Below, piece by piece: positions 3,536-36,167 of a DNA stretch of 36,720 nt. This stretch comes from an uncultured Clostridia bacterium (lineage in GTDB: Bacteria > Bacillota > Clostridia > TANB77 > CAG-508). Each line of letters opens with the position of its first letter. Positions within the stretch are counted from its first letter, which is position 1. The notes under the pieces are model-generated. The model searched no databases. It saw nothing but the letters and a program-made list of their open reading frames with translations, and was not told where the DNA came from. The translations under genes were made by a program, and so were the position numbers. Where the stretch lies: contig CANQJY010000002.1 in NCBI GenBank assembly GCA_947624365.1, forward strand, positions 1 to 36,720. Direction: 5' to 3'.

Positions 3536-3611
3536 GGGCCATTAGCTCAGTTGGTAGAGCAGCAGACTCTTAATCTGACGGTCGGAGGTTCGAACCCTCT
3601 ATGGCTCACCA
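3536..3611 (+). tRNA. tRNA-Lys (anticodon CTT), CCA encoded
   Basis: 76-nt cloverleaf: acceptor GGGCCAT/ATGGCTC, D arm GCTC-AGTTGGTA-GAGC, anticodon loop CT-CTT-AA, T arm GGAGG-TTCGAAC-CCTCT, terminal CCA. Confidence 0.95.
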
Positions 3612-14296: not shown

Positions 14297-17200
14297 TTAT
14301 AAAAATTTCATTCTTTTAAAATATTTTATATATTGTATTATATAATTTTTGTCAATATTTTTCCAGTAAAATCCGATAGATTGTAAAAATTTTTCAGAAA
14401 AAGTACTATCCAATCGAATTCTAGAGGTATATACCAACTGTTTCTGGCTATCCAAATCATGGATAATACCAGACAAAATTTGCTTTTTATCATCATCTTC
14501 TAATATTTCATTAATCAATTTTGTCATTTCTTCATTTGAAACAGGCAATATATTATATCCAAATTCAGTTAAAGTATCAGCAAACAATTGTAATGAAAGT
14601 AGTTTAGTATCATAGATATGTAAAACAGTACAATCACTAGTATAGCCAGTTAAACGAATAATAGCATCAGCACATAAATCAACAGGTGTTACTTCAACTT
14701 CATGTTGTAATGCATAAGCAGGAAATGCTCCTAATTTAACAAAAGATTGAATACGTTTTGCAAAAGCGTTTTCATCAATATTTCTTTGAAATCTACCATC
14801 ACGATAACGATTTGAAATATTACCAATACGCAAAATCATTGCATCTAAACCATCTAAAATAGCTTCTAACACAATACGTTCAGCCTTAAATTTAGTTATA
14901 GTATAAATACCTTTTAAATGTTGACCAACAAATAAATCTTTTTCACTAAAAATAACTTTATCATTTATATTTTCAGAAGTTTCTACAATGGCTTCTTCTT
15001 TTTCACCATTACCAGAAACACTAATTGTAGAAATATGGAAAAGCCTTTTATTAAATTCTTTACACCATGAAACAACATTAGCAGTGCCTAAAATATTTAT
15101 GTTTTCAAACAATTCTTTATTACCATAGTGTTTTACAATTGCACCAGCGTGAATTACAGTTGAAACTTCTTGTTTTAAAAGATTTGTATCTTCTTCAGAA
15201 AGAGATAGATTTTGTTCTGTAATATCACCTTCAATTACATGTATGCGAAAACTATATTGATCATAAAAAGCTTCACCAAAATAATATTGTAAAGTATTTT
15301 TCAATCTTTCATAAGGAATTATATTATCTTTTTTACGTATTAAGCAATAAATATCACCAGTTTTCCTTTTTAAAAATGAACCAATCAAATGAGCCCCAAC
15401 ATAGCCAGTACCACCAATTAAAAATACATTTCCAGTATCTACTTTTTTAATAGAATTCAAATATTCTTCAGAATTCTTTGAAAGTAATTCATCAAATTTT
15501 TGATAATTATAATTTTCAATATCACCTTTTTGTAAACGGTGTCTAGTTTTAGCAGACAATTGGTGAATAGTAGGAAAATTGAAAATATCAGCATATTCAA
15601 AATCAAAACCTTCACGTAAAGCATCAATTTGCATATTAATTGCCAAAATAGAATCTCCACCAATATCGAAGAAATTATCATAAATAGATATATCATCTAA
15701 ATGTAAAATACGTTTCCAAATATTCCATAATTTTTTCTCATTTGGTGTTTTTATTTCATCAATAATTTTTGCAACTTTACGCTCATTTATATCAGGAATT
15801 GGTAATGCTTTTCTATCAATCTTACGATTAATTGTATAAGGCATTTCTTCCAAACGGAAAATATAAGTAGGAACCATATATGCTGGTAAATTTTTTTTAA
15901 GAATATCTTTTACGTCACCTTCTGTAATATATGAATTTTCATCACAAACATAGTATCCACACAAAAATTCACGATCTTCAATACATACTTTATGAGCAAC
16001 ACTAGATATAACACCAGGAATTTGTTCCATAACACCTTCAATTTCACCAAGCTCTATACGCAATCCACGTAATTTAATTTGATTATCTATACGCCCTAAA
16101 CATTGAACTTTTCCATCAAAAGTCCATTTACCAATATCGCCAGATTTATACATTTTGCCAGTTCCAAAAGGATTATCAATAAATTTATCATGAGTCATAT
16201 CAGGTTTACCAAGATAACCAAGGCCAACTTGAATACCAGAAATATAAATTTCACCAACAACACCAATTGGAACAGGGCGAAGATATTTATCTAATATATG
16301 AATTTGCGTATTCAAAATAGGAGGGCCGATTGTAATACGATCTTCACCATTTAAATTTTGAACATTACAAAGTACAGTAATTTCACTAGGACCATAAATA
16401 TTGTAAATAGTAACATTATCAGATAATTCACGTAAATCTTTTACAAATTTTTCAGGTAAAGGTTCTCCACCAAAAACCATATGTTTGATTTGGGACAAAG
16501 CAGAAGGTGATACACGATTATCATAATTTATTTTCATTAAGCTAGGAGTTACAGTCATAACATCTCCACCATATTGTTTGATTAATTTATCTAGTAGGAT
16601 AGGATTTCTATGTTCTTCGTTATTTGCCATTAAAATACGTAACCCATGCCCTAAAGAAACTAAAATTTCATAAACAAAAATATCAAAAGGTGTAGAAGTA
16701 ACAGAAACTAAGCAATGTTCATTTCCATCTTTTAAATATTCTAAAACTTTACCCATTGCAATAACCATATTTGCAAGTCCAATCTGATGTAACATAACTC
16801 CTTTAGGCTTACCCGTAGAGCCAGAAGTATATATAACATAAGATAAATCCATAGAATTAACAGTTACATTTGGATTATTGAAATGCTTTAAATATATAGG
16901 GCTATCTAAATCAATTTCTATACAATGTTCTATATTTTTAACAAGTTTTTTTAAAGACTTTTGTACCAAAACATATTTTGCCTTACAATCTTTTAAATAA
17001 TATTTTGTACGTTCTATGGGATATGTAGGGTCAACATTCAAAAAGGCAGCTCCAGCTTTTAAAATTCCAAGCATACATACAATAGTTTCAAAAGAACGAT
17101 TAGTCATAATACACACAATATCATTTGGCTTAATTCCTTGTGAAATCAAATAATGAGCAAGCGAATTTGCCTTTTTATTTAATTCTTTATATGTTAAATT

Positions 17201-20200
17201 TTTTCCATCACAAATAATAGCAATATCTTCAGGATGTAGCATTACTTGATTCTCAAATATTTCAACAAATGAATTGTATTCAATATCACCAGCTGTATTA
17301 TTAAAAGATTGCAACAAATTATTTTCTTCTTCTGTTAAGGCAGGTATTTTATGCAAAGGAAGATCCATAAAAGAAGATAAATGTTGTAAAATATATAAAT
17401 AATGTTTATATAAACTGTCAATAGTTTCCTCTGCAAATAATGCAGTTTGATATTCAAATGAAATCTCTAAAGTAGAAGGATTAATTTCTACTGTTAAAGG
17501 AAATTTTGCTGTATGTGTATGAGCACCATATAATTCAACAGATTTGTTATTAAGAGAAATTTGTTCTACTTCTTCATTTTGATATGTAAATACCACATCA
17601 AAGACAGAAGAATTTGCAGGAACATTAATATCTTTTACAAAAGTATTATAAGGATAAGGCTGATGAGATAGACCATCTAAAACCGTTTCTTTTACTTGTT
17701 GTAACAAATCTAAAAAACTACAATCACTATTAATATCTATTGCCAAAACAACATTATTAACAAACATACCAATCATATTATTTAATTCTTTATGATAGCG
17801 AGACTCAATTGGAGAACCAATAATTAGAGTTTCTTGCCCAGTATATAAATATAGTAATAAATATAAAGCACTTAAAAATACCATATATTCAGAAACATGG
17901 TGATTAGAAGCTATATCAGAAATTGCATTAAATAAATCAGTATCAAATTTAAAAGTTAAGCGTTCTCCATCATATGATTTTTGATTTGTTACTGGATAAT
18001 CATAAGGTAAGTTAATAACAGGAATTGATAAATCTTTAAATTTATTTTTCCAATATTCTTGATAATCTAAAAATGCCTCAGAAGAAAACATATCATTTTC
18101 CCACATAGTATAATCTGTATAAGAGTATCTACTTTTATCTAATTCTTGACCTTGATATAATTTGCAAAAATCAGATAGCAAAATATATAAAGAAGTACCA
18201 TCTAATATAATATGATGAGAATCCAGTAATATTAAAGTAGAAGAATTAATATAATGTACTTCTACACGTAACAATGGAGCAAAGTCTAAATCAAATATTT
18301 TAGGAAAATTATCAACCAACTCAGAAATATATTCAGGAGTTGAAATACCATCATCATAATAAGGAATGTCTAAGTTTACATGTTTTAAAATAAACTGTCT
18401 TACTTCTCCATTTTCTATTTTAAAATAAGTACGGAAAATAGGATGTCTTTCTACTAATTCTGAAAAAGCTTCACGGATTTTTTGAATATCTAATAAATCA
18501 TTAATTAAAATACCACCACTTACATGATAAACAAGAGAATCACCAGCCATTTTTGTTGCATAATAAATTCTTTCTTGTGCTGAAGAAAGTGGATAAGAAG
18601 GCATAGGCGTTGCTTTCTTAAGTTTTACTATACAATCTTTCTTGTCCTTTCCACTTAAAAATATTGCCAAAGATTGAATAGTAGGATATTGGAATAAGTC
18701 AGTAATAGAAATAGCCTTTCCTGAAAATCCTTCTATCTCTAAGCAGAAACGAATTCCTTGCAAAGAGTCCATACCTAAAGTAAAGAAATTTTCATCAATA
18801 GAAATTTGTTTTAATCCTAATAAATGGCATAAAGAGTCATGCAATTTTGCTTGCATAGAATTTGTGGGACCAACAAAATCCCTACGGAAATCTGCAAAAT
18901 CAGGCAAAGTAGATATATCAATTTTACCATTTTTTGTAACAGGAAATTTATCTAATAATATAAAATGTGAAGGTATCATATAGTAAGGTAAAAGTTTTGA
19001 AAGTTCCAATTTTAAATTTTCAATAGACAAAGAATTATCTTCTAATATTACATAAGCACAAAGACAATCTATCTTCTCAATAGATTTCACAAGAATAAGT
19101 GCATTTTTAACACCTGAAATATTTTTTAATCTATTTGTAATTTCTTGTAATTCAATACGATGGCCATGTAATTTAATTTGAGAATCATTTCTACCCATAA
19201 AGCAAAGATACCCCTTTTTATCCCAACGAACAATATCACCGGTTCTATAAAAAAGGGAAGAGCCAAATCCAGGTAATAATATATAACTTTTTTCATTCAT
19301 TGAAACATTATGCAAATAACCTTTCGAAACATTTTCTCCACTAATACATAATTCTCCAGGGTATCCAATAGGCATAATATTTCCAAAGTGATTTATAACT
19401 ACAATTATATTATTTTTTAAAGGATATCCAATAGGAACAATCCCATCAGAATCATCTTCTTTAGTATATTTATAAAATGTAGAGCAAATAGTAGCCTCAG
19501 TAGGGCCATAGCCATTTACAATTTCTATGTTTTCATTTAAATTAAAATATTTACGCAAATCTGCTTTTTTTATTGCTTCTACACCAACTAACATTTTATT
19601 TAATGCAATTGTTGAACAATGTGAATATACATAGTTATATACATCATTTAAAATATTTGGAGGAATATATAAAAAGGTAATTTGTTCTTCTTCCAAAAGT
19701 TCGCATAAAAGAGGAATATCTGTTAATGTGTTTTGAGGATATAAAACTAAAGTAGCTCCAAAACATAATGGAGTGAATAGTTCACACACACTCACATCAA
19801 ATGAAATATTTGTACTAGATAAACAAACATCTTCATTTGAAAATCCATTTTCAAAACAATTAGAAAAAGTATATAAAAAATTAACTAAATTACGATGTGT
19901 AAGCATAACTCCTTTTGGCCTTCCAGTAGAACCAGAAGTATAAATTACATAGCATAAACGATTACTAGCAATAGACACATGTAAAGAGTCAGAAGAATAA
20001 TCATCTAAAGAAATATCAGTTGCACGTGAAACAACCAAATTTTTAATATCATTTAACTTGAATAATTGATCTGTTAAAAATAGTTTAGCATGACTATCAG
20101 TTAAAATATATCGAATTCTATCTTCAGGATAATCAAAAGACATTGGTAAATAAGCAGCACCCAATTTTAAAATTGCTAAAATACTAATAACAAAGAAATC

Positions 20201-21739
20201 ATTTTTATGCATACATACTCCAACAATATCATTTGACTTTACACCTTGATTAGAAAGGTAATGTGCTAATTGATTTGCTTTTTTATCTAATTGACTATAA
20301 GTAAGTCGTGTATCTTGATAAACACATGCTATACTATCTGGATGAAGTCTTACCTGTTTTTGAAAAAGGTCTATAATAGTGCAATCCAAAGGACAATCTA
20401 AAAAGCCAGATTGAAGATTTTGAGTCAATTGTAATCTTTCTTTATCTGTTATAAATTGCACATTTTGAAGTAATATATCAGGCATAGATACAACCTGTTC
20501 AATCATAGAACATAAACGATTGTGCCAAACCATTACATCAGCTTGAGTATATTTAGAATTAACGAAATCATAATCTACTTCCAAACTACCAATATCATTT
20601 AAATCATACAAGTGAATACTAATATCATTCATACAATTACCAGTAAAAGCCCAATTTAACTCACAATCCCCATTATCATGAGACAAAGTTTTTGTAATTT
20701 GATAAGAAACAGCAATATTATATAAATGAGAAATAGAATTATCTTTATTACCCAAATCTTCCATCAATTGAGAATAAGGATATTTCTGATGGCGCAAAAT
20801 AGAGGTAAAAGCAGAGCGATTTGCTTCTAAAAATTCTGAAAAGCGCATATTTTTAAAAACATGAGTACGAAAAGGAACAGTAGTTACAAACATACCAGTA
20901 GAACGTTTTTCCTTAAAATTTGCGCGATTTAATATTGGTGTACCAATAAGTACATCATCAACATTGCCAGCATTTGCTAAAAATAGTGAAATTACTGACA
21001 TAAAAAATACATAATTAGAAACACGAAAGTCTGAACATAATTTATTGATACGTTCCATAATTTGTTTGTCCAAACGAAATGTAAGCCTAGAACCATCAGG
21101 AGAATCCACAAAATTATCTGATAAAGAAGGAATACTAGTAGGAGTAGGTGGATCCTGTAGATAAGACATCCAAAAAGTTTTATCTTTCTGAAAATTTTTG
21201 CTATCCAAATATTTTTGTTCTGCTAATATATGTTCAGTATATGAAACAGTATCAGAAACATAATCTTTATTAGATAATAGACAATGATAAATTTTTACAA
21301 TTTCCTGAATAGTGATACCCATAGACCACGAATCAGAAATAATATGATGTAAATTTAAAACAACTGCTACATATCCATTAGGAAATACAGCAAGTTTAAA
21401 AGTAAAAAGACGAGAATCAAGCAATGAAAACGTCTCTTTTACAAATTCTTCTTCAAAAGACATGAGATATTCAGTAGAAGGTAGATTTACAACAGAAATA
21501 TCATCTACTCCATATATATCATCAGCAGCAATATATTGGAAAGGTTCACTATCATTTACAGTTAGGCGAATACGAAAACTATCATTTTCTTGTACAAGAC
21601 GTACAATAGCCTGTTTTAACAAAGGAATATCAACTTTTTCTTTTATTAAACCAGAACCGCAAATATTACAAGCATTTGAATCTTTTAAAAATTGCTGTGA
21701 AAACCAAATATTTAATTGAGGATTTGTTAATTTAAACAT
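14297..21739 (-). CDS. Dimodular nonribosomal peptide synthetase, C-A-T-C-A-T-R (terminal thioester reductase)
   Basis: Motifs in order, numbered from the ORF-track Met at 21751. C1: HHIISDS (135-141). A1: YTSGSTGRPKG (604-614), NGYGPTE, YRTGD, NGKID. T1: LGMDS (Ser996). C2: HHIILDG (1179-1185). A2: YTSGSTGKPKG (1641-1651), NIYGPSE, YKSGD. T2: IGGDS (Ser2034). R: GGTGYVG (2113-2119) and YTITK (2283-2287). A GGAG 6 nt upstream favours Met5 (21739) as the start. Confidence 0.95.
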   Translation of the reverse strand: MFKLTNPQLNIWFSQQFLKDSNACNICGSGLIKEKVDIPLLKQAIVRLVQENDSFRIRLTVNDSEPFQYIAADDIYGVDDISVVNLPSTEYLMSFEEEFVKETFSLLDSRLFTFKLAVFPNGYVAVVLNLHHIISDSWSMGITIQEIVKIYHCLLSNKDYVSDTVSYTEHILAEQKYLDSKNFQKDKTFWMSYLQDPPTPTSIPSLSDNFVDSPDGSRLTFRLDKQIMERINKLCSDFRVSNYVFFMSVISLFLANAGNVDDVLIGTPILNRANFKEKRSTGMFVTTVPFRTHVFKNMRFSEFLEANRSAFTSILRHQKYPYSQLMEDLGNKDNSISHLYNIAVSYQITKTLSHDNGDCELNWAFTGNCMNDISIHLYDLNDIGSLEVDYDFVNSKYTQADVMVWHNRLCSMIEQVVSMPDILLQNVQFITDKERLQLTQNLQSGFLDCPLDCTIIDLFQKQVRLHPDSIACVYQDTRLTYSQLDKKANQLAHYLSNQGVKSNDIVGVCMHKNDFFVISILAILKLGAAYLPMSFDYPEDRIRYILTDSHAKLFLTDQLFKLNDIKNLVVSRATDISLDDYSSDSLHVSIASNRLCYVIYTSGSTGRPKGVMLTHRNLVNFLYTFSNCFENGFSNEDVCLSSTNISFDVSVCELFTPLCFGATLVLYPQNTLTDIPLLCELLEEEQITFLYIPPNILNDVYNYVYSHCSTIALNKMLVGVEAIKKADLRKYFNLNENIEIVNGYGPTEATICSTFYKYTKEDDSDGIVPIGYPLKNNIIVVINHFGNIMPIGYPGELCISGENVSKGYLHNVSMNEKSYILLPGFGSSLFYRTGDIVRWDKKGYLCFMGRNDSQIKLHGHRIELQEITNRLKNISGVKNALILVKSIEKIDCLCAYVILEDNSLSIENLKLELSKLLPYYMIPSHFILLDKFPVTKNGKIDISTLPDFADFRRDFVGPTNSMQAKLHDSLCHLLGLKQISIDENFFTLGMDSLQGIRFCLEIEGFSGKAISITDLFQYPTIQSLAIFLSGKDKKDCIVKLKKATPMPSYPLSSAQERIYYATKMAGDSLVYHVSGGILINDLLDIQKIREAFSELVERHPIFRTYFKIENGEVRQFILKHVNLDIPYYDDGISTPEYISELVDNFPKIFDLDFAPLLRVEVHYINSSTLILLDSHHIILDGTSLYILLSDFCKLYQGQELDKSRYSYTDYTMWENDMFSSEAFLDYQEYWKNKFKDLSIPVINLPYDYPVTNQKSYDGERLTFKFDTDLFNAISDIASNHHVSEYMVFLSALYLLLYLYTGQETLIIGSPIESRYHKELNNMIGMFVNNVVLAIDINSDCSFLDLLQQVKETVLDGLSHQPYPYNTFVKDINVPANSSVFDVVFTYQNEEVEQISLNNKSVELYGAHTHTAKFPLTVEINPSTLEISFEYQTALFAEETIDSLYKHYLYILQHLSSFMDLPLHKIPALTEEENNLLQSFNNTAGDIEYNSFVEIFENQVMLHPEDIAIICDGKNLTYKELNKKANSLAHYLISQGIKPNDIVCIMTNRSFETIVCMLGILKAGAAFLNVDPTYPIERTKYYLKDCKAKYVLVQKSLKKLVKNIEHCIEIDLDSPIYLKHFNNPNVTVNSMDLSYVIYTSGSTGKPKGVMLHQIGLANMVIAMGKVLEYLKDGNEHCLVSVTSTPFDIFVYEILVSLGHGLRILMANNEEHRNPILLDKLIKQYGGDVMTVTPSLMKINYDNRVSPSALSQIKHMVFGGEPLPEKFVKDLRELSDNVTIYNIYGPSEITVLCNVQNLNGEDRITIGPPILNTQIHILDKYLRPVPIGVVGEIYISGIQVGLGYLGKPDMTHDKFIDNPFGTGKMYKSGDIGKWTFDGKVQCLGRIDNQIKLRGLRIELGEIEGVMEQIPGVISSVAHKVCIEDREFLCGYYVCDENSYITEGDVKDILKKNLPAYMVPTYIFRLEEMPYTINRKIDRKALPIPDINERKVAKIIDEIKTPNEKKLWNIWKRILHLDDISIYDNFFDIGGDSILAINMQIDALREGFDFEYADIFNFPTIHQLSAKTRHRLQKGDIENYNYQKFDELLSKNSEEYLNSIKKVDTGNVFLIGGTGYVGAHLIGSFLKRKTGDIYCLIRKKDNIIPYERLKNTLQYYFGEAFYDQYSFRIHVIEGDITEQNLSLSEEDTNLLKQEVSTVIHAGAIVKHYGNKELFENINILGTANVVSWCKEFNKRLFHISTISVSGNGEKEEAIVETSENINDKVIFSEKDLFVGQHLKGIYTITKFKAERIVLEAILDGLDAMILRIGNISNRYRDGRFQRNIDENAFAKRIQSFVKLGAFPAYALQHEVEVTPVDLCADAIIRLTGYTSDCTVLHIYDTKLLSLQLFADTLTEFGYNILPVSNEEMTKLINEILEDDDKKQILSGIIHDLDSQKQLVYTSRIRLDSTFSEKFLQSIGFYWKNIDKNYIIQYIKYFKRMKFL

Positions 21740-21771
21740 CTTTTTCTCCATTTACACATCTTTGTCAATTT

Positions 21772-21845
21772 TGTCCATTTTGGGACGGTCCTTTTTTGGA
21801 CATTTTGAAACAAATGTCCAAAAAAGGACCGTCCCAAAATGGACA
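21772..21845. repeat. Perfect palindrome (31-bp core arms, extendable to 34 bp) in the NRPS leader, possibly a MITE-like element
   Basis: GTCCATTTTGGGACGGTCCTTTTTTGGACAT (21773-21803) is the exact reverse complement of 21814-21844. Each arm is two tandem GTCC-N6-GGAC units. It is flanked by the direct repeat ACACATCTTT (21754-21763 and 21848-21857). Confidence 0.9.
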
Positions 21846-21866
21846 TGACACATCTTTATTAAGGCA

Positions 21867-21895
21867 ATTATATAAATAACACAAAAAAAATGCAA
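21867..21895 (-). promoter_or_regulatory. Sigma-A-type promoter for the NRPS-HK-RR operon
   Basis: On the minus strand: TTGCAT (21895-21890), 17-bp spacer, TATAAT (21872-21867). The predicted TSS near 21860 puts the palindrome inside the 5' leader. Confidence 0.5.
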
Positions 21896-21966
21896 TAGTT
21901 TAGAAAATAAATTTCATAAAATGTCGAAATTTATCAAATTTTGCGATGAAAAGTTAACGGAAACAA

Positions 21967-22027: not shown

Positions 22028-22678
22028 ATGAAAATATTTACATACGAAGAATATATAGAATATAAAAAGCAAGTAAAAATATATGCAGATAAACATTTTA
22101 AACTTAGCATAGAAAAACAAATTTTTTTAGAAATGTATAATGGAAAAGAAGAATTAAAGACCGGTGAAATATACGAGTATTGGAAAAATTCAAAAAGAAA
22201 AATAAATAATATACAATTACAAAAAAAATTAGAAAATAAAACAAAAATAATTCCTATTATCAATAATGCCGTAAAAGATAATTTACACCTTACACCAGAG
22301 ATGCTACAAATGTATAAATCTAGCTATATAAATACAATGTTTCAAAATGGCCAAATAAGTATTATATATCGAATTATTGGAACTAATATATTTTTTTTAA
22401 TTACGCATCAAGAGAAAATTGATTATACTATGCCAGCAAGAATTCTTAGTTATATTATAGGAGTTATAGATAAAGCATTAAAAAATGTTGAAATTAGAAG
22501 ACATATGAAAATCCCAACAGTTATACCTATTATAGTATATACGGGAAACGAACAATGGAATATGGAACAATTTATAAAAAATAGTCAAAAAAAGCTATAC
22601 CCATTTCAAAAAATAGGTTTAGGAGAATATAATATTTTAAAAATGTTTAAAAATAAAAATAATTGGGAACACTTGTAA
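22028..22678 (+). CDS. Rpn/YhgA-like PD-(D/E)XK family protein (putative transposase/recombination-promoting nuclease family), truncated and probably catalytically degenerate
   Basis: YKSSYIN...ISIIYRIIGTNIFFLITHQEKIDYTMPARILSY...IPTVIPIIVYTGNEQW matches the clostridial Rpn core pattern (xDIVYK...LIEHQSxIDYSMPxRxxxY...PxVIPIVLYTGxxxW). AAAGGAG RBS before the ATG at 22028. Confidence 0.6.
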   Translation: MKIFTYEEYIEYKKQVKIYADKHFKLSIEKQIFLEMYNGKEELKTGEIYEYWKNSKRKINNIQLQKKLENKTKIIPIINNAVKDNLHLTPEMLQMYKSSYINTMFQNGQISIIYRIIGTNIFFLITHQEKIDYTMPARILSYIIGVIDKALKNVEIRRHMKIPTVIPIIVYTGNEQWNMEQFIKNSQKKLYPFQKIGLGEYNILKMFKNKNNWEHL

Positions 22679-29063: not shown

Positions 29064-29097
29064 TGTCCATTTTGGGACGGTACTTTTTTGGACATTT
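29064..29097 (+). repeat. Solo copy of the 31-bp palindrome arm seen at 21773-21803 (33/34 identity)
   Basis: tGTCCATTTTGGGACGGTaCTTTTTTGGACATtt starts 1 nt after the murF TAA. There is a single C>A difference at 29082. Confidence 0.9.
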
Positions 29098-29132
29098 ACT
29101 CATTTTGGAACAGGTTTTAAAAAATTATTTAG

Positions 29133-29162
29133 AAAAATCCATAAAACTATGGATTTTTTTTT
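29133..29162 (+). terminator. Rho-independent terminator after murF
   Basis: aaaaatccata / tatggattttt stem, 4-nt loop, long T-tract. Confidence 0.7.
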
Positions 29163-33196: not shown

Positions 33197-34282
33197 ATGA
33201 AATTTGTTCATATTGCAGACATGCATTTTGACAGCCCATTTATAAATTTATCAAACAAAGAAATCTTAGGAGATACACGTAGATTAGATCAAAGAAAAAT
33301 ATTAAAAAAAGTAATTACATATATTCAAGAACACCAAATTCCAATATTATTAATTTCAGGAGATTTATATGAGCATAAATATATTAAGCAATCAACAATA
33401 CAGTATATAAACAATGAATTTAAAGAGATTCCAAATACACAAATATTTATTAGTCCAGGAAATCACGACCCATATTTACAAAATTCATATTATGCACAAT
33501 ATGAATGGAACAAAAATGTACATATTTTTAATTCAAAATTTGAAAAAATCAGTTTACAAGATGCAGATATTTATGGATATGGATTTAATGACTTTTATTG
33601 TACAAATTGTGGCATAGAGGAATTAAAAATAGAAAATCCAGAAAAGCTAAATATAGCAATTCTACATGGTTCAATAAATTCATCTAACACAGAAGATAGA
33701 CAATACAATCCAATTCCAAGAAAAACATTGGAAAATAAAGGATTTGACTATGTTGCAATGGGGCATATACATAAACCATCATATAAAGATGAGCCAAATC
33801 AAAGAATAGTATATCCAGGCTCTTGCATTTCCCTAGGATTTGACGAATTAGGAGAACACGGAATGATTGTAGGAGATGTAACAAAACAAGAAATTAAATT
33901 AGAATTAATTTCATTAGACGAAAAAGCATTTATAGAAAAAGAAGTTGATGTTACAAACATTTTGTCAAAAGAAGAATTAATAGAAAAAATAAATCAACAA
34001 GAATATTCAAATACAGAATTTATAAAAATAATATTAACAGGAACACGACACTTTGAAATTGATACATATAAGATATATCAATTTATAGAAAGTGAACAAA
34101 TAATCAAAATAAAAGATAAAACAAAACCATATTATGATTTACAAAAAATAAAAAATGATAGCACCTTGAAAGGAATGTTTGCAGGAAAAATGTTAGAAAG
34201 AATGCAAAATAAGGAATTATCAGAAACAGAAAAAGAAGTATTAGAAAAGGCCATTGAAATTGCATTTGATGCACTTCAATAG
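33197..34282 (+). CDS. Metallophosphoesterase, SbcD/Mre11-like DNA repair exonuclease (YhaO-like)
   Basis: MKFVHIADMHFD, SGDLYE, GNHDP, HG and GHIH calcineurin-like phosphoesterase motifs. AAGGAG RBS. Confidence 0.85.
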   Translation: MKFVHIADMHFDSPFINLSNKEILGDTRRLDQRKILKKVITYIQEHQIPILLISGDLYEHKYIKQSTIQYINNEFKEIPNTQIFISPGNHDPYLQNSYYAQYEWNKNVHIFNSKFEKISLQDADIYGYGFNDFYCTNCGIEELKIENPEKLNIAILHGSINSSNTEDRQYNPIPRKTLENKGFDYVAMGHIHKPSYKDEPNQRIVYPGSCISLGFDELGEHGMIVGDVTKQEIKLELISLDEKAFIEKEVDVTNILSKEELIEKINQQEYSNTEFIKIILTGTRHFEIDTYKIYQFIESEQIIKIKDKTKPYYDLQKIKNDSTLKGMFAGKMLERMQNKELSETEKEVLEKAIEIAFDALQ

Positions 34283-34295
34283 AAGGGAGATAATT

Positions 34296-36167
34296 TTGAA
34301 AATACAGCAATTAAAAATCAATCATTATGGCAAATTACAGAATAAAGAAATAAAATTTGGTAATAACATAAATTTAATTTATGGAAAAAATGAAGCGGGA
34401 AAATCCACAATTTTATCATATATTGTAAATATTTTTTACGGTATTTCTAAAAATAAAAAAGGGAAAGAATATTCAGACTTTGAAAAATATGAACCATGGG
34501 TAGGAGAAGAATTTTCAGGAAAATTAACATATCAATTAGATAATAAAAAAACATATGAAATTCAAAGAGATTTTAAAAAGAAAAACCCAAAAATCTTTAA
34601 TGAAAACATGGAAGATATTTCAAAGGAATTTCCAATTGATAAATCAACAGGAAATAGTTTTTTTTATGAACAAACAAAAGTAGATGAACAACTATTTTTA
34701 TCAACACTTGTAGCAAATCAGCAAGAAACACGATTACAAAAAAGTGAGCAAGGAATATTAGTACAAAAAATAGCAAATTTAGTAGGCACAGGAGAAGATA
34801 AAGTATCATATAAAATAGCAGTAGACCGTTTAAACCGTAGGCAATTAGACGAAATCGGAAGCAGTAGAACACGCGAAAAGCCTATAAATTTAATAGAAAA
34901 AAAGATTATACAAATTGAAGAAGAAAAAGAAAAATTACAGCAATATCAAGACAAACAATATGAAACAGAAACAAAGGAAAAGCAACTATTAAAACAAATC
35001 CAAGAATTAGAAAAAGAAATGCAAGAAATACAGCAATTAAAAATCTCTTATGAAGAACAAGAGATGGAAAATCAAAAAATAGCAGTAAAAGAAAACATAA
35101 AAGAGCAAAACTCAGAAAAAATCAAAGAAATTAATGAACGCCTTAATGATATTATAAAAACATGTGAAGAGAAAAAAACAAAAAGCGAAAAGGCTCAAAA
35201 ATACGGAAAATACTTATTCGTAATTACAGCAATAATATTAATTTTAAATGCTATTTTACAACCAATATTTTTGGGAAATGTAATTATAAACATAGTTACA
35301 ATAGCAGTAAGTATCATATTTTTAGCTATTGCAATTCTAGTAATAACAAAAAAACATAAACAAGATATAAAAGAACAAAAAGAAAATTTAAAGCAATATG
35401 AAATATTAAAAGAAAAACAAAATTTATTAGAAAATGAAATAAAAATTTTAGAAAAAAGCAATGAAGAAATAGAAAAAGAAATACAAACATTAAAAAAATA
35501 TCCTAAAATTGCAAAAGAACAAATGGAAACAATTACATCTAAGAATATATTATACAAAATGCAATCAACACAAAATAACATTAATGATAAAAAAATTGAA
35601 TTACACGCATTACAATTAGACAAAAACAATATAATACCAAGTTTAGAAAAATTAGCAAAAATGGAAGAAGAATATGCAAATTTACAAGAGCAAAGGCAAG
35701 AATTACAAAAATTAAATACTGCAATTGATATAGCAAAGCAAGTATTAGAAGAATGTTATGAAACTATGCGTCATACAGTAACACCAAAGTTTACACAAAA
35801 TTTATCTAATATAATTTGCAATATTACAAACCAAAAATATACACATGTACGTTTCCATGATGAACAAGGTTTAATTGTAGAAAATGAAAAAGGAGAATAT
35901 ATTCCAGCTACAAAATTAAGTATAGGAACAATTGAACAGTTATATCTTTCTTTACGATTATCTATGATAGATGATTTATCTTCAGAACAATTGCCAATAA
36001 TCTTAGATGAAACATTTGCATATTTTGACGAAGAACGTTTAGAAAATTTCTTGACATATATGTCAAAAACATATTCAAACAGGCAGATTTTAATATTTAC
36101 ATGTACAAATAGAGAAAAAAATATTTTAGACAAACAAAAAATACCATATGATTTGATAGAACTATAA
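34296..36167 (+). CDS. AAA/SMC-like ATPase with long coiled coil (SbcC/YhaN-like), internal TM hairpin
   Basis: Walker A GKNEAGKST, and C-terminal LSIGTIEQLYLSLRL plus PIILDETFAYFD. AGGGAG RBS 7 nt before the TTG at 34296, which I prefer over the ATG at 34254 because that one lies inside the upstream gene. Hydrophobic stretch YLFVITAIILILN...IAILVI in the mid-protein. Confidence 0.8.
   Translation: MKIQQLKINHYGKLQNKEIKFGNNINLIYGKNEAGKSTILSYIVNIFYGISKNKKGKEYSDFEKYEPWVGEEFSGKLTYQLDNKKTYEIQRDFKKKNPKIFNENMEDISKEFPIDKSTGNSFFYEQTKVDEQLFLSTLVANQQETRLQKSEQGILVQKIANLVGTGEDKVSYKIAVDRLNRRQLDEIGSSRTREKPINLIEKKIIQIEEEKEKLQQYQDKQYETETKEKQLLKQIQELEKEMQEIQQLKISYEEQEMENQKIAVKENIKEQNSEKIKEINERLNDIIKTCEEKKTKSEKAQKYGKYLFVITAIILILNAILQPIFLGNVIINIVTIAVSIIFLAIAILVITKKHKQDIKEQKENLKQYEILKEKQNLLENEIKILEKSNEEIEKEIQTLKKYPKIAKEQMETITSKNILYKMQSTQNNINDKKIELHALQLDKNNIIPSLEKLAKMEEEYANLQEQRQELQKLNTAIDIAKQVLEECYETMRHTVTPKFTQNLSNIICNITNQKYTHVRFHDEQGLIVENEKGEYIPATKLSIGTIEQLYLSLRLSMIDDLSSEQLPIILDETFAYFDEERLENFLTYMSKTYSNRQILIFTCTNREKNILDKQKIPYDLIEL

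Follow-up and report, generated by a model that had tools for sequence, protein, structure and literature searches.

A 36,720-nt stretch of DNA from an uncultured Clostridia bacterium (contig CANQJY010000002.1; hereafter, the window) carries a perfect palindrome of two inverted 34-nt units in the leader of a nonribosomal peptide synthetase (NRPS) gene. This palindrome is most probably, at an estimated probability of about 0.8, a collapsed, two-terminus copy of a family of small non-coding mobile elements, similar to MITEs (miniature inverted-repeat transposable elements) or to the doublets of repetitive extragenic palindromic (REP) sequences termed REPINs, which resides in the intergenic DNA of spore-forming gut Clostridia of low GC (guanine plus cytosine) content. 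One option of an earlier, sequence-only reading of this DNA was the insertion of a MITE-like mobile repeat into the leader, with duplication of its target, and that option is now supported by further copies of the arm, both in the window and in related genomes, and by an orthologous leader in which the site is empty. Two circumstances had been named there as arguing against mobility, namely that no other copies exist and that relatives share the sequence; neither was encountered.

The architecture of the palindrome was confirmed by a repeat search, which found 34-nt arms of 100% complementarity around the 6 nt TGAAAC (Table 1). The dyad GTCC-N6-GGAC, of which four copies had been read in the palindrome, indeed starts at positions 21773, 21788, 21816 and 21831, with a spacing of 15 bp inside each arm; a fifth copy at 29065 completes the window total, against 0.03 expected from shuffles. 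The direct repeat ACACATCTTT, which was said to bracket the element, is present on both sides, and its extended form matches at 13 of 15 positions. Bracketing direct repeats of at least 10 nt around a 75-bp segment, within 25 nt, occur at 0.39% of window positions. The proposed GTCA...TGAC ends are also there as letters, but their interpretation as ends needs correction: the right-hand TGAC shares 2 nt with the direct repeat, and the left-hand GTCA falls within TGTCAATTT, in which the first 9 nt of the element are partly repeated in tandem. At 74-84 bp and without an open reading frame (ORF), the element lies within the size of bacterial MITEs, which generally remain below 200-400 bp and carry no transposase gene (PMC3184786). 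It likewise has terminal inverted repeats around a core, the latter shrunk to 6 nt in the window copy; with only 6 nt between its arms, the structure does not qualify as an inverton.

The affected gene (ORF 14297-21751, minus strand, in a window of 28% GC) encodes an NRPS with the domains C-A-T-C-A-T-reductase and is followed by genes for a histidine kinase (7TM) and a response regulator (HD-GYP). Judging from a GGAG motif 6 nt upstream and from the called start of an ortholog that aligns there, translation of the NRPS starts at 21739. This start codon and the upstream TATAAT had been recognized in the sequence-only reading, which also placed the palindrome correctly between the -10 element and the start codon; the TATAAT is conserved in two relatives. 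A generic promoter scan misses the putative NRPS promoter, because its -35 element matches at only 3 of 6 positions. Transcription would be expected to start near 21860.

Comparison with related loci (designated by L numbers) argues for an insertion of the repeat. The closest relatives are metagenome-assembled genomes of uncultured gut Clostridia, with at most 74% identity in the Mur ligase and at most 85% in HtrA. Searches for exact copies of two window proteins gave no match. Locus L088 has the same gene order as the window, and its NRPS is 72% identical in amino acids over the first 400 residues. The NRPS leader of L088/L089 aligns on both sides of window positions 21764-21857 and lacks the segment between, while the start region and the promoter-like -35 and -10 elements are conserved; the empty site in L088 therefore lacks the element plus one copy of ACACATCTTT, and L084 also lacks the segment. 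At a second window copy, located behind a Mur ligase gene, L001, L002, L003 and L005 keep the terminator hairpin but miss ~52 bp that include the unit. Since the sites of these relatives are empty, both window copies are lineage-specific gains. In four loci of the same genus (L186, L152, L204 and L132), syntenic with window 7.5-14.3 kb at ~86% amino acid identity, a unit occupies a site that is empty in the window. Dispersed copies thus differ in presence and absence between relatives, as do those of bacterial MITEs; presence or absence among the metagenome loci themselves is uninformative, as every locus was selected for carrying the pattern described below.

Exact 29-mers had 0 matches in reference genomes and metagenomes, which indicates that the window variant is lineage-specific. 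The wider family was found only by a structure-based degenerate pattern, ATGTCC-N5/6-GGAC-N1/2-GTNC-N6-GGACAT, which returned more than 120 metagenome stretches among the matches listed, mostly gut contigs of 26-32% GC with a common GGGACGGTTC core. A profile of the unit matched 177 times in the pattern-selected metagenome stretches and three times in the window, and it had no match across 1.57 Mb of relatives' loci not selected for the pattern. The unit is a module of ~33 nt, TGTCC-N6-GGAC-G-GTYC-N6-GGACA(T), and folds singly with z = -3.4. Full-length members (24 non-redundant) measure 131-141 bp and contain no ORF; their conservation starts exactly at TGTCC and stops at GGACA. The termini, ~31-34 nt in length (TGTCCWTTTGGGGACGGTTCTTTTTGGGACAT, TGTCC...GGACAT), are near-invariant, and the interior of 69-74 nt is fixed in length and poorly conserved in sequence, its orientation being identical at three full-length loci that were each sampled in two assemblies. 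The 75 non-redundant elements comprise 27 inverted doublets and 46 solitary units. Units are intergenic in 92 of 109 cases (84%), although 81% of that DNA is coding according to crude gene calls (ORFs of at least 90 amino acids). The genes flanking the elements are unrelated housekeeping and sporulation genes, and for this reason the hosts are taken to be spore-forming Clostridia. Some units are kept at orthologous sites across species, with ~87% flank identity. One orthologous site, compared between two species, is occupied by a full-length element of 139 bp in one (L151) and by a collapsed, terminus-to-terminus form of 71 bp in the other (L111); the latter has the architecture of the window palindrome.

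The copy behind the Mur ligase gene, missed in the sequence-only reading, repeats the 34-mer with one mismatch in an unrelated spacer of the window; the 31-mer is likewise repeated there, from 29065 and with one mismatch. The three window units are 0-1 nt apart from each other and at least 2 nt from all 36 other variants. The three have two substitutions in common, a pair found together in none of the 36, which suggests copying inside the window lineage. Just downstream of the solitary unit stands a canonical terminator hairpin, AAAAATCCATAAAA..TATGGATTTTTTT (29125-29160), conserved across species (L001/L002/L005). The solitary unit would thus not be needed as a terminator.

Table 1. Positions of the palindromic element, the solitary unit and the associated NRPS features in the window
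Feature	Position	Strand	Remarks
Left arm, one 34-nt family unit (terminus)	21772-21805	+	Outer end TGTCC at 21772; holds GTCCATTTTGGGAC and GTCCTTTTTTGGAC; nhmmer 21772-21806, E 1.4e-7
Loop TGAAAC, 6 nt	21806-21811	.	Replaces the ~70-nt interior of full-length members
Right arm, inverted copy of the left-arm unit	21812-21845	-	34/34 complementary to left arm
TGTCAATTT, partial tandem duplication of terminal 9 nt (TGTCCATTT)	21763-21771	+	Also present at ends of family members in L171 and L103
Direct repeat ACACATCTTT, left copy, target-site-duplication-like	21754-21763	+	
Direct repeat ACACATCTTT, right copy	21848-21857	+	
Segment of ~94 bp (element and one direct-repeat copy)	21764-21857	.	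Missing from the L088/L089 NRPS leader and from L084
Solitary unit, 33/34 identical to arms	29064-29097	+	1 nt past Mur-ligase stop codon; co-oriented with transcription
Degenerate third module ACTCATTTTGGAACAGG after solitary unit	29098-29114	+	With the unit, ~52 bp that relatives lack, upstream of conserved terminator
NRPS gene, intact; 5' untranslated region bears the element	14297-21739	-	C-A-T-C-A-T-reductase
Start codon of the NRPS gene, 21737-21739; ribosome-binding site, GGAG, 21746-21749	21737-21749	-	22 nt past hairpin foot; unpaired in predicted fold
Inferred NRPS promoter	21867-21896	-	-35 TTGCAT at 21891-21896 and -10 TATAAT at 21867-21872, both read as reverse complements and 17 nt apart; also conserved in L088 and L084

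Several observations weigh against a mobile element of the MITE type. Neither the window nor ~0.7 Mb of repeat-bearing loci yielded an autonomous element or a transposase whose ends match. The bracket repeat of the window copy is offset from the TGTCC and GGACA ends by 8 and 2 nt, and its 10 bp are atypical of the family, in which a 5-bp A/T repeat accompanies at most ~6 of 24 copies and many copies lack one. Even inside a single assembly, conservation of the interiors is far below that of the termini, unlike in a young burst of MITEs derived from an insertion sequence (IS).

The proposed course of events may be outlined as follows. Two units would serve as the terminal inverted repeats of an element moved in trans by a candidate enzyme, either DDE-type or similar to the REP-associated tyrosine transposases (RAYTs). 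With the interior shortened to 6 nt, the termini form a perfect 34-bp stem. Insertion would have taken place after the window lineage split from that of L088, in the 5' untranslated region (UTR) of the NRPS gene, ~3-12 nt downstream of the presumed transcription start, with duplication of 8-10 bp of target (ACACATCTTT). Staggered-cut integration is favoured because of the bracket repeat and the empty site, and a RAYT-type mechanism is retained as a candidate because of the inconsistent duplications in the family and its REPIN-like architecture (PMC3116915). The insertion is tolerated, since the NRPS gene is intact.

The NRPS mRNA would thereby gain a hairpin at ~+10 to +95 of a leader of ~120 nt, with a free ribosome-binding site. 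The NRPS-sense RNA is predicted to fold into a perfect stem of 34 bp (-65.1 kcal/mol, z = -11.6) that leaves the ribosome-binding site and start codon unpaired. The stem is followed by AAAAUUGACAAAG in the NRPS sense, in which the lack of a U-tract had been noted before, and by UGACACAUCUUU in the opposite sense; with no U-tract in either direction, the 74-bp hairpin is not a terminator, and the generic terminator pattern is matched only by sub-hairpins of 5-6 bp within the palindrome. By analogy with transcribed Correia elements, the long perfect duplex may be a substrate for a double-strand-specific RNase or a 5' stabiliser; altered processing or stability of the NRPS mRNA would, on that analogy, be the likeliest consequence of the insertion. 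The leader hairpin would be a by-product of insertion and no purpose-built regulator.

The search for a mobilising enzyme covered genes adjoining the units as well as the wider sequence collections. A Pfam scan of 83 genes flanking elements showed no enriched transposase family, and a megablast search for multi-copy segments of 0.6-5 kb found syntenic housekeeping blocks only. Plasmid and phage collections and viral contigs gave no relevant match. A tblastn search with two IS200-family queries, the TnpA sequences of IS200 and IS608, detected only an ordinary IS200 (L099) and a degenerate fragment (L161), neither of them flanked by units. The former (L099 1-560), 59% identical to the IS200 TnpA query, has a structured right end and lies in a repeat-rich assembly, with no unit beside it. 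In the window, the gene divergent from the NRPS (22028-22678), ahead of HtrA, encodes a YhgA/Rpn-like PD-(D/E)XK protein. This 'Transposase_31' gene, the sole transposase candidate of the window and 182 bp from the palindrome, was rejected as mobiliser: the L088 ortholog (180 amino acids) is present without the element, and there is no second terminus. An ORF of ~198 amino acids, bracketed by inverted units in six samples and considered as a RAYT, proved to be an NT5C-type nucleotidase; other unit-bracketed ORFs encode an amidase, RadA, RNase J and similar proteins. In L112 (2606-3225), the nucleotidase ORF runs into the unit and gains its last residues and stop codon from it (...EKEMSILGQMS*), as it does in six samples. 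A RadA-like gene in L178 (3059-4433) is spread over two consecutive ORFs, one for the N-terminal zinc-ribbon/ATPase portion and one for the Lon-like C-terminal portion, which could reflect a frameshift or an assembly error.

The family may also be viewed as a REPIN-type population, in which 33-nt REP-like units replicate as doublets, copied via single-stranded hairpins by a single-copy RAYT-like (HUH/Y1) transposase; the window palindrome would then be a minimal REPIN and not an IS-derived MITE. This view is considered unlikely, yet it accounts for much of the architecture, which fits the published description of conserved inverted ends, a spacer constrained in length rather than in sequence, and many singlets (PMC3116915). 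The units are hairpin-forming one by one, strongly extragenic, and present as both inverted doublets and singlets (27 against 46), and the variable spacer of 69-74 nt keeps its length between termini that hardly vary. The family shows no consistent target duplication, no parent IS was found for it in the loci searched, and Group 1 RAYTs occur in Clostridia (PMC5581495). Against this stands the result of the enzyme search, which revealed no Y1/RAYT gene beside any unit, only the unlinked IS200 and the degenerate fragment, and no transposase enrichment among the genes flanking the 75 elements. The 10-bp bracket repeat of the window copy and the empty ortholog site are not expected of HUH-type insertion. 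The interiors, unlike REPIN spacers, are not self-complementary, folding alone no better than shuffles (mean z = -0.09, 21 elements), and the units lack a GTAG-type 5' motif.

A broader proposal would regard the family as the Clostridial counterpart of REPINs, consisting of long-lived, protein-recognised modules (the GTCC-N6-GGAC dyads) with strongly conserved ends and a length-constrained, sequence-free spacer, which a domesticated single-copy enzyme or a master recombinase would maintain and the host would exploit at gene boundaries such as stop codons and 5' UTRs. The proposal is speculative and its chances are low; if it were true, the copy in the NRPS leader would be one node of a genome-wide, trans-controlled network, and the family would be no decaying IS debris.

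A related possibility, still less probable, is that the units are host-exapted gene-boundary modules, acting as terminator-like or RNA-stabilising hairpins in the manner of pneumococcal SPRITE or of REP sequences and bacterial interspersed mosaic elements, with the leader copy as a transcription or processing barrier that tunes the NRPS. Solitary units are co-oriented with flanking tandem genes by 21 to 8, and in ~12 of 38 cases the unit begins at the upstream stop codon or overlaps it, like the copy at 29064. The co-oriented strand also folds better (-12.7 vs -7.0 kcal/mol), generic scans score every unit as terminator-like, and A-run and T-run brackets are common (25/37 and 22/37). The persistence of units at orthologous sites, at the ~87% flank identity given above, agrees with this as well. 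However, the T-runs are just 3-5 nt long and equally common in anti-oriented copies, the second window copy lies upstream of a separate canonical terminator, the 74-bp palindrome has no U-tract either way, and presence or absence varies among close relatives.

The sequence-only reading had further proposed an operator array, in which the four GTCC-N6-GGAC sites bind a dimeric regulator that represses or roadblocks the NRPS just downstream of the start site. The geometry is suggestive, each 14-mer being a perfect dyad with half-site centres ~10 bp apart (TGT-N10-ACA geometry), and the four sites, where 0.03 would be expected, are located at ~+12 to +86; a kinase and response-regulator pair is encoded downstream of the NRPS. 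The idea is nevertheless highly improbable. The array is absent from the promoters and leaders of L088/L089 and L084, which keep the NRPS and kinase genes, so that the site is not conserved. The same sequence recurs beside more than 80 unrelated genes, in many spacers next to housekeeping genes and, in the window, after a stop codon, and the output domain of the adjacent response regulator is HD-GYP, which is not DNA-binding.

The third option of that reading, an RNA stability or translation element, can be put more generally as a dedicated cis-acting RNA, be it an attenuator, a stability determinant or a riboswitch-like switch, which arose for the control of the 7.4-kb NRPS mRNA. A very stable hairpin would indeed form if the palindrome is transcribed in the 5' UTR, but such an origin has little credibility. 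The leader is not conserved among orthologs; Rfam holds no family matching the palindrome at gathering score, and only generic microRNA-precursor-type hairpins appear below threshold, also at a permissive setting. The hairpin has neither a U-tract nor an alternative pairing that involves the ribosome-binding site, and the identity of its arms on the two strands indicates symmetry of the DNA, not selection on the RNA. An assembly artefact, conceivable in a single metagenome-type contig of 36,720 bp where chimeric reads can yield perfect inverted repeats, may practically be dismissed: the palindrome is short and internal, each of its collinear flanks can be aligned with orthologs, the arm recurs independently 7 kb away, and the family, collapsed forms included, is found in many independent assemblies.

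A mobile repeat of the MITE or REPIN kind, the preferred reading, has several known parallels. The Correia elements of Neisseria (CREE/Nemis) are likewise non-coding (~100-157 bp), with long terminal inverted repeats, intergenic, often 5' of genes and co-transcribed with them (PMC3184786, PMC2649163). They also form long hairpins and differ in presence between close strains, and the window copy, too, lies in a 5' UTR, where it would form a long perfect duplex. Correia elements are bound by RNase III, with cleavage or protection as the outcome (PMC2649163); for the family described here, the link to RNase III is by analogy. There is no sequence similarity between the two, and Correia elements duplicate TA, whereas the window copy has a bracket of ~10 bp and its family no consistent duplication. 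Correia cores are conserved, with IHF sites and promoters, in contrast to the variable interiors of this family and to the window copy, which has none.

The REPIN and REP sequences of Pseudomonas and Enterobacteria share with the family conserved inverted ends, a free spacer of constrained length, abundant singlets, strictly extragenic location, hairpin-forming units and the lack of a parent IS (PMC3116915). The differences lie in the absence of a detectable RAYT, of pairing in the interiors and of the GTAG motif from this family, and in the target-duplication-like repeat of the window copy. The hosts differ as well, being Clostridia here, whereas RAYT groups 2 and 3, the ones firmly tied to REP sequences, were characterised from Escherichia and Pseudomonas (PMC5581495). 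Comparable, too, are the pneumococcal RUP, BOX and SPRITE repeats, Firmicute intergenic sequences built from short modules, of which RUP is a MITE of 107 bp and SPRITE resembles Rho-independent terminators (PMC3184786); the solitary units of the present family likewise score like terminators and follow stop codons. The pneumococcal sequences are, however, unrelated to those of this family, and BOX modules are tandem, not inverted. RUP also has an identified parent, IS630-Spn1, with TA as target, whereas none was found for the present family. The ERIC/IRU elements of Enterobacteriaceae, imperfect palindromes of ~127 bp, are similarly intergenic, transcribed with their neighbours and present in size variants at orthologous sites, but they are conserved over their whole length and have TA flanks. 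The present family conserves its termini only, and occurs in solitary and collapsed forms. The kind of element is therefore known (PMC3184786), while the family itself seems to be undescribed; a literature string search for the core sequence returned unrelated primers only.

A mobile repeat explains the palindrome without a new regulatory mechanism and averts its mis-annotation as an operator or riboswitch, in a gut-bacterial NRPS cluster of the dipeptide type. The window and L088 also provide a natural pair, with and without the element, for the effect of a perfect 34-bp leader hairpin on expression. The family is abundant in uncultured low-GC gut Clostridia, where it breaks assemblies and alters 5' UTRs and the 3' ends of genes, one unit even supplying a stop codon, and it could serve as a marker for strain typing. 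As its REPIN-like features (conserved ends, free spacer, many solitary units) occur in a Gram-positive lineage, it is a reasonable case for testing if replicators of the REPIN type are present beyond the Proteobacteria.

Some further observations concern relatives of the repeat. A higher-GC variant (L118, L124, L150 and L194; GC 0.53-0.58) has termini TGTCCTCAAAGGGACGGTTCTTTTGAGGACA and elements mostly of ~227 bp (134 bp in L150), and its neighbours are ordinary genes; this type of terminus is therefore not confined to the low-GC lineage. In L172 (8984-9016), a unit of this variant is located 28 nt downstream of a further NRPS fragment that ends in a reductase, which is probably a coincidence. 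A CATTGGGACCGGTTC-type unit is nested inside an outer inverted repeat, TTGGGGACGGTTCCTTTTGCGAAAA ... TTTGCAAAAAGAACCGTCCCCAA, in L102, L127, L153, L157, L192 and loci related to them; modules thus recombine into compound hairpins. Two palindromic families unrelated to this one were likewise picked up by the degenerate pattern, one bordered by CTACCGCTATA/TATAGCGGTAG and the other beside TTGTCAA (GC 0.37-0.46); the loci in question are L097, L122, L159 and L184, and L106, L126, L138, L168 and L208.

Other observations concern the window and its NRPS locus. L081, which had been tried as an empty-site comparator, was dropped, as its NRPS proved to be a different gene (29% identity). That gene of the closest relative (L081 3836-8108) is split and lies next to HtrA like its window counterpart (14297-21739), L088 and L084 carrying the ortholog; the NRPS locus is thus variable between close lineages. 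At gathering score, Rfam matches nothing in the window except a tRNA gene (3536-3608). At the far end (33197-36167) lie genes for SbcD-like (Metallophos) and SbcC-like (AAA_23/AAA_27) proteins, components of a nuclease type that attacks long DNA palindromes; the host apparently encodes an SbcCD-like nuclease, yet keeps a perfect palindrome of 74 bp.

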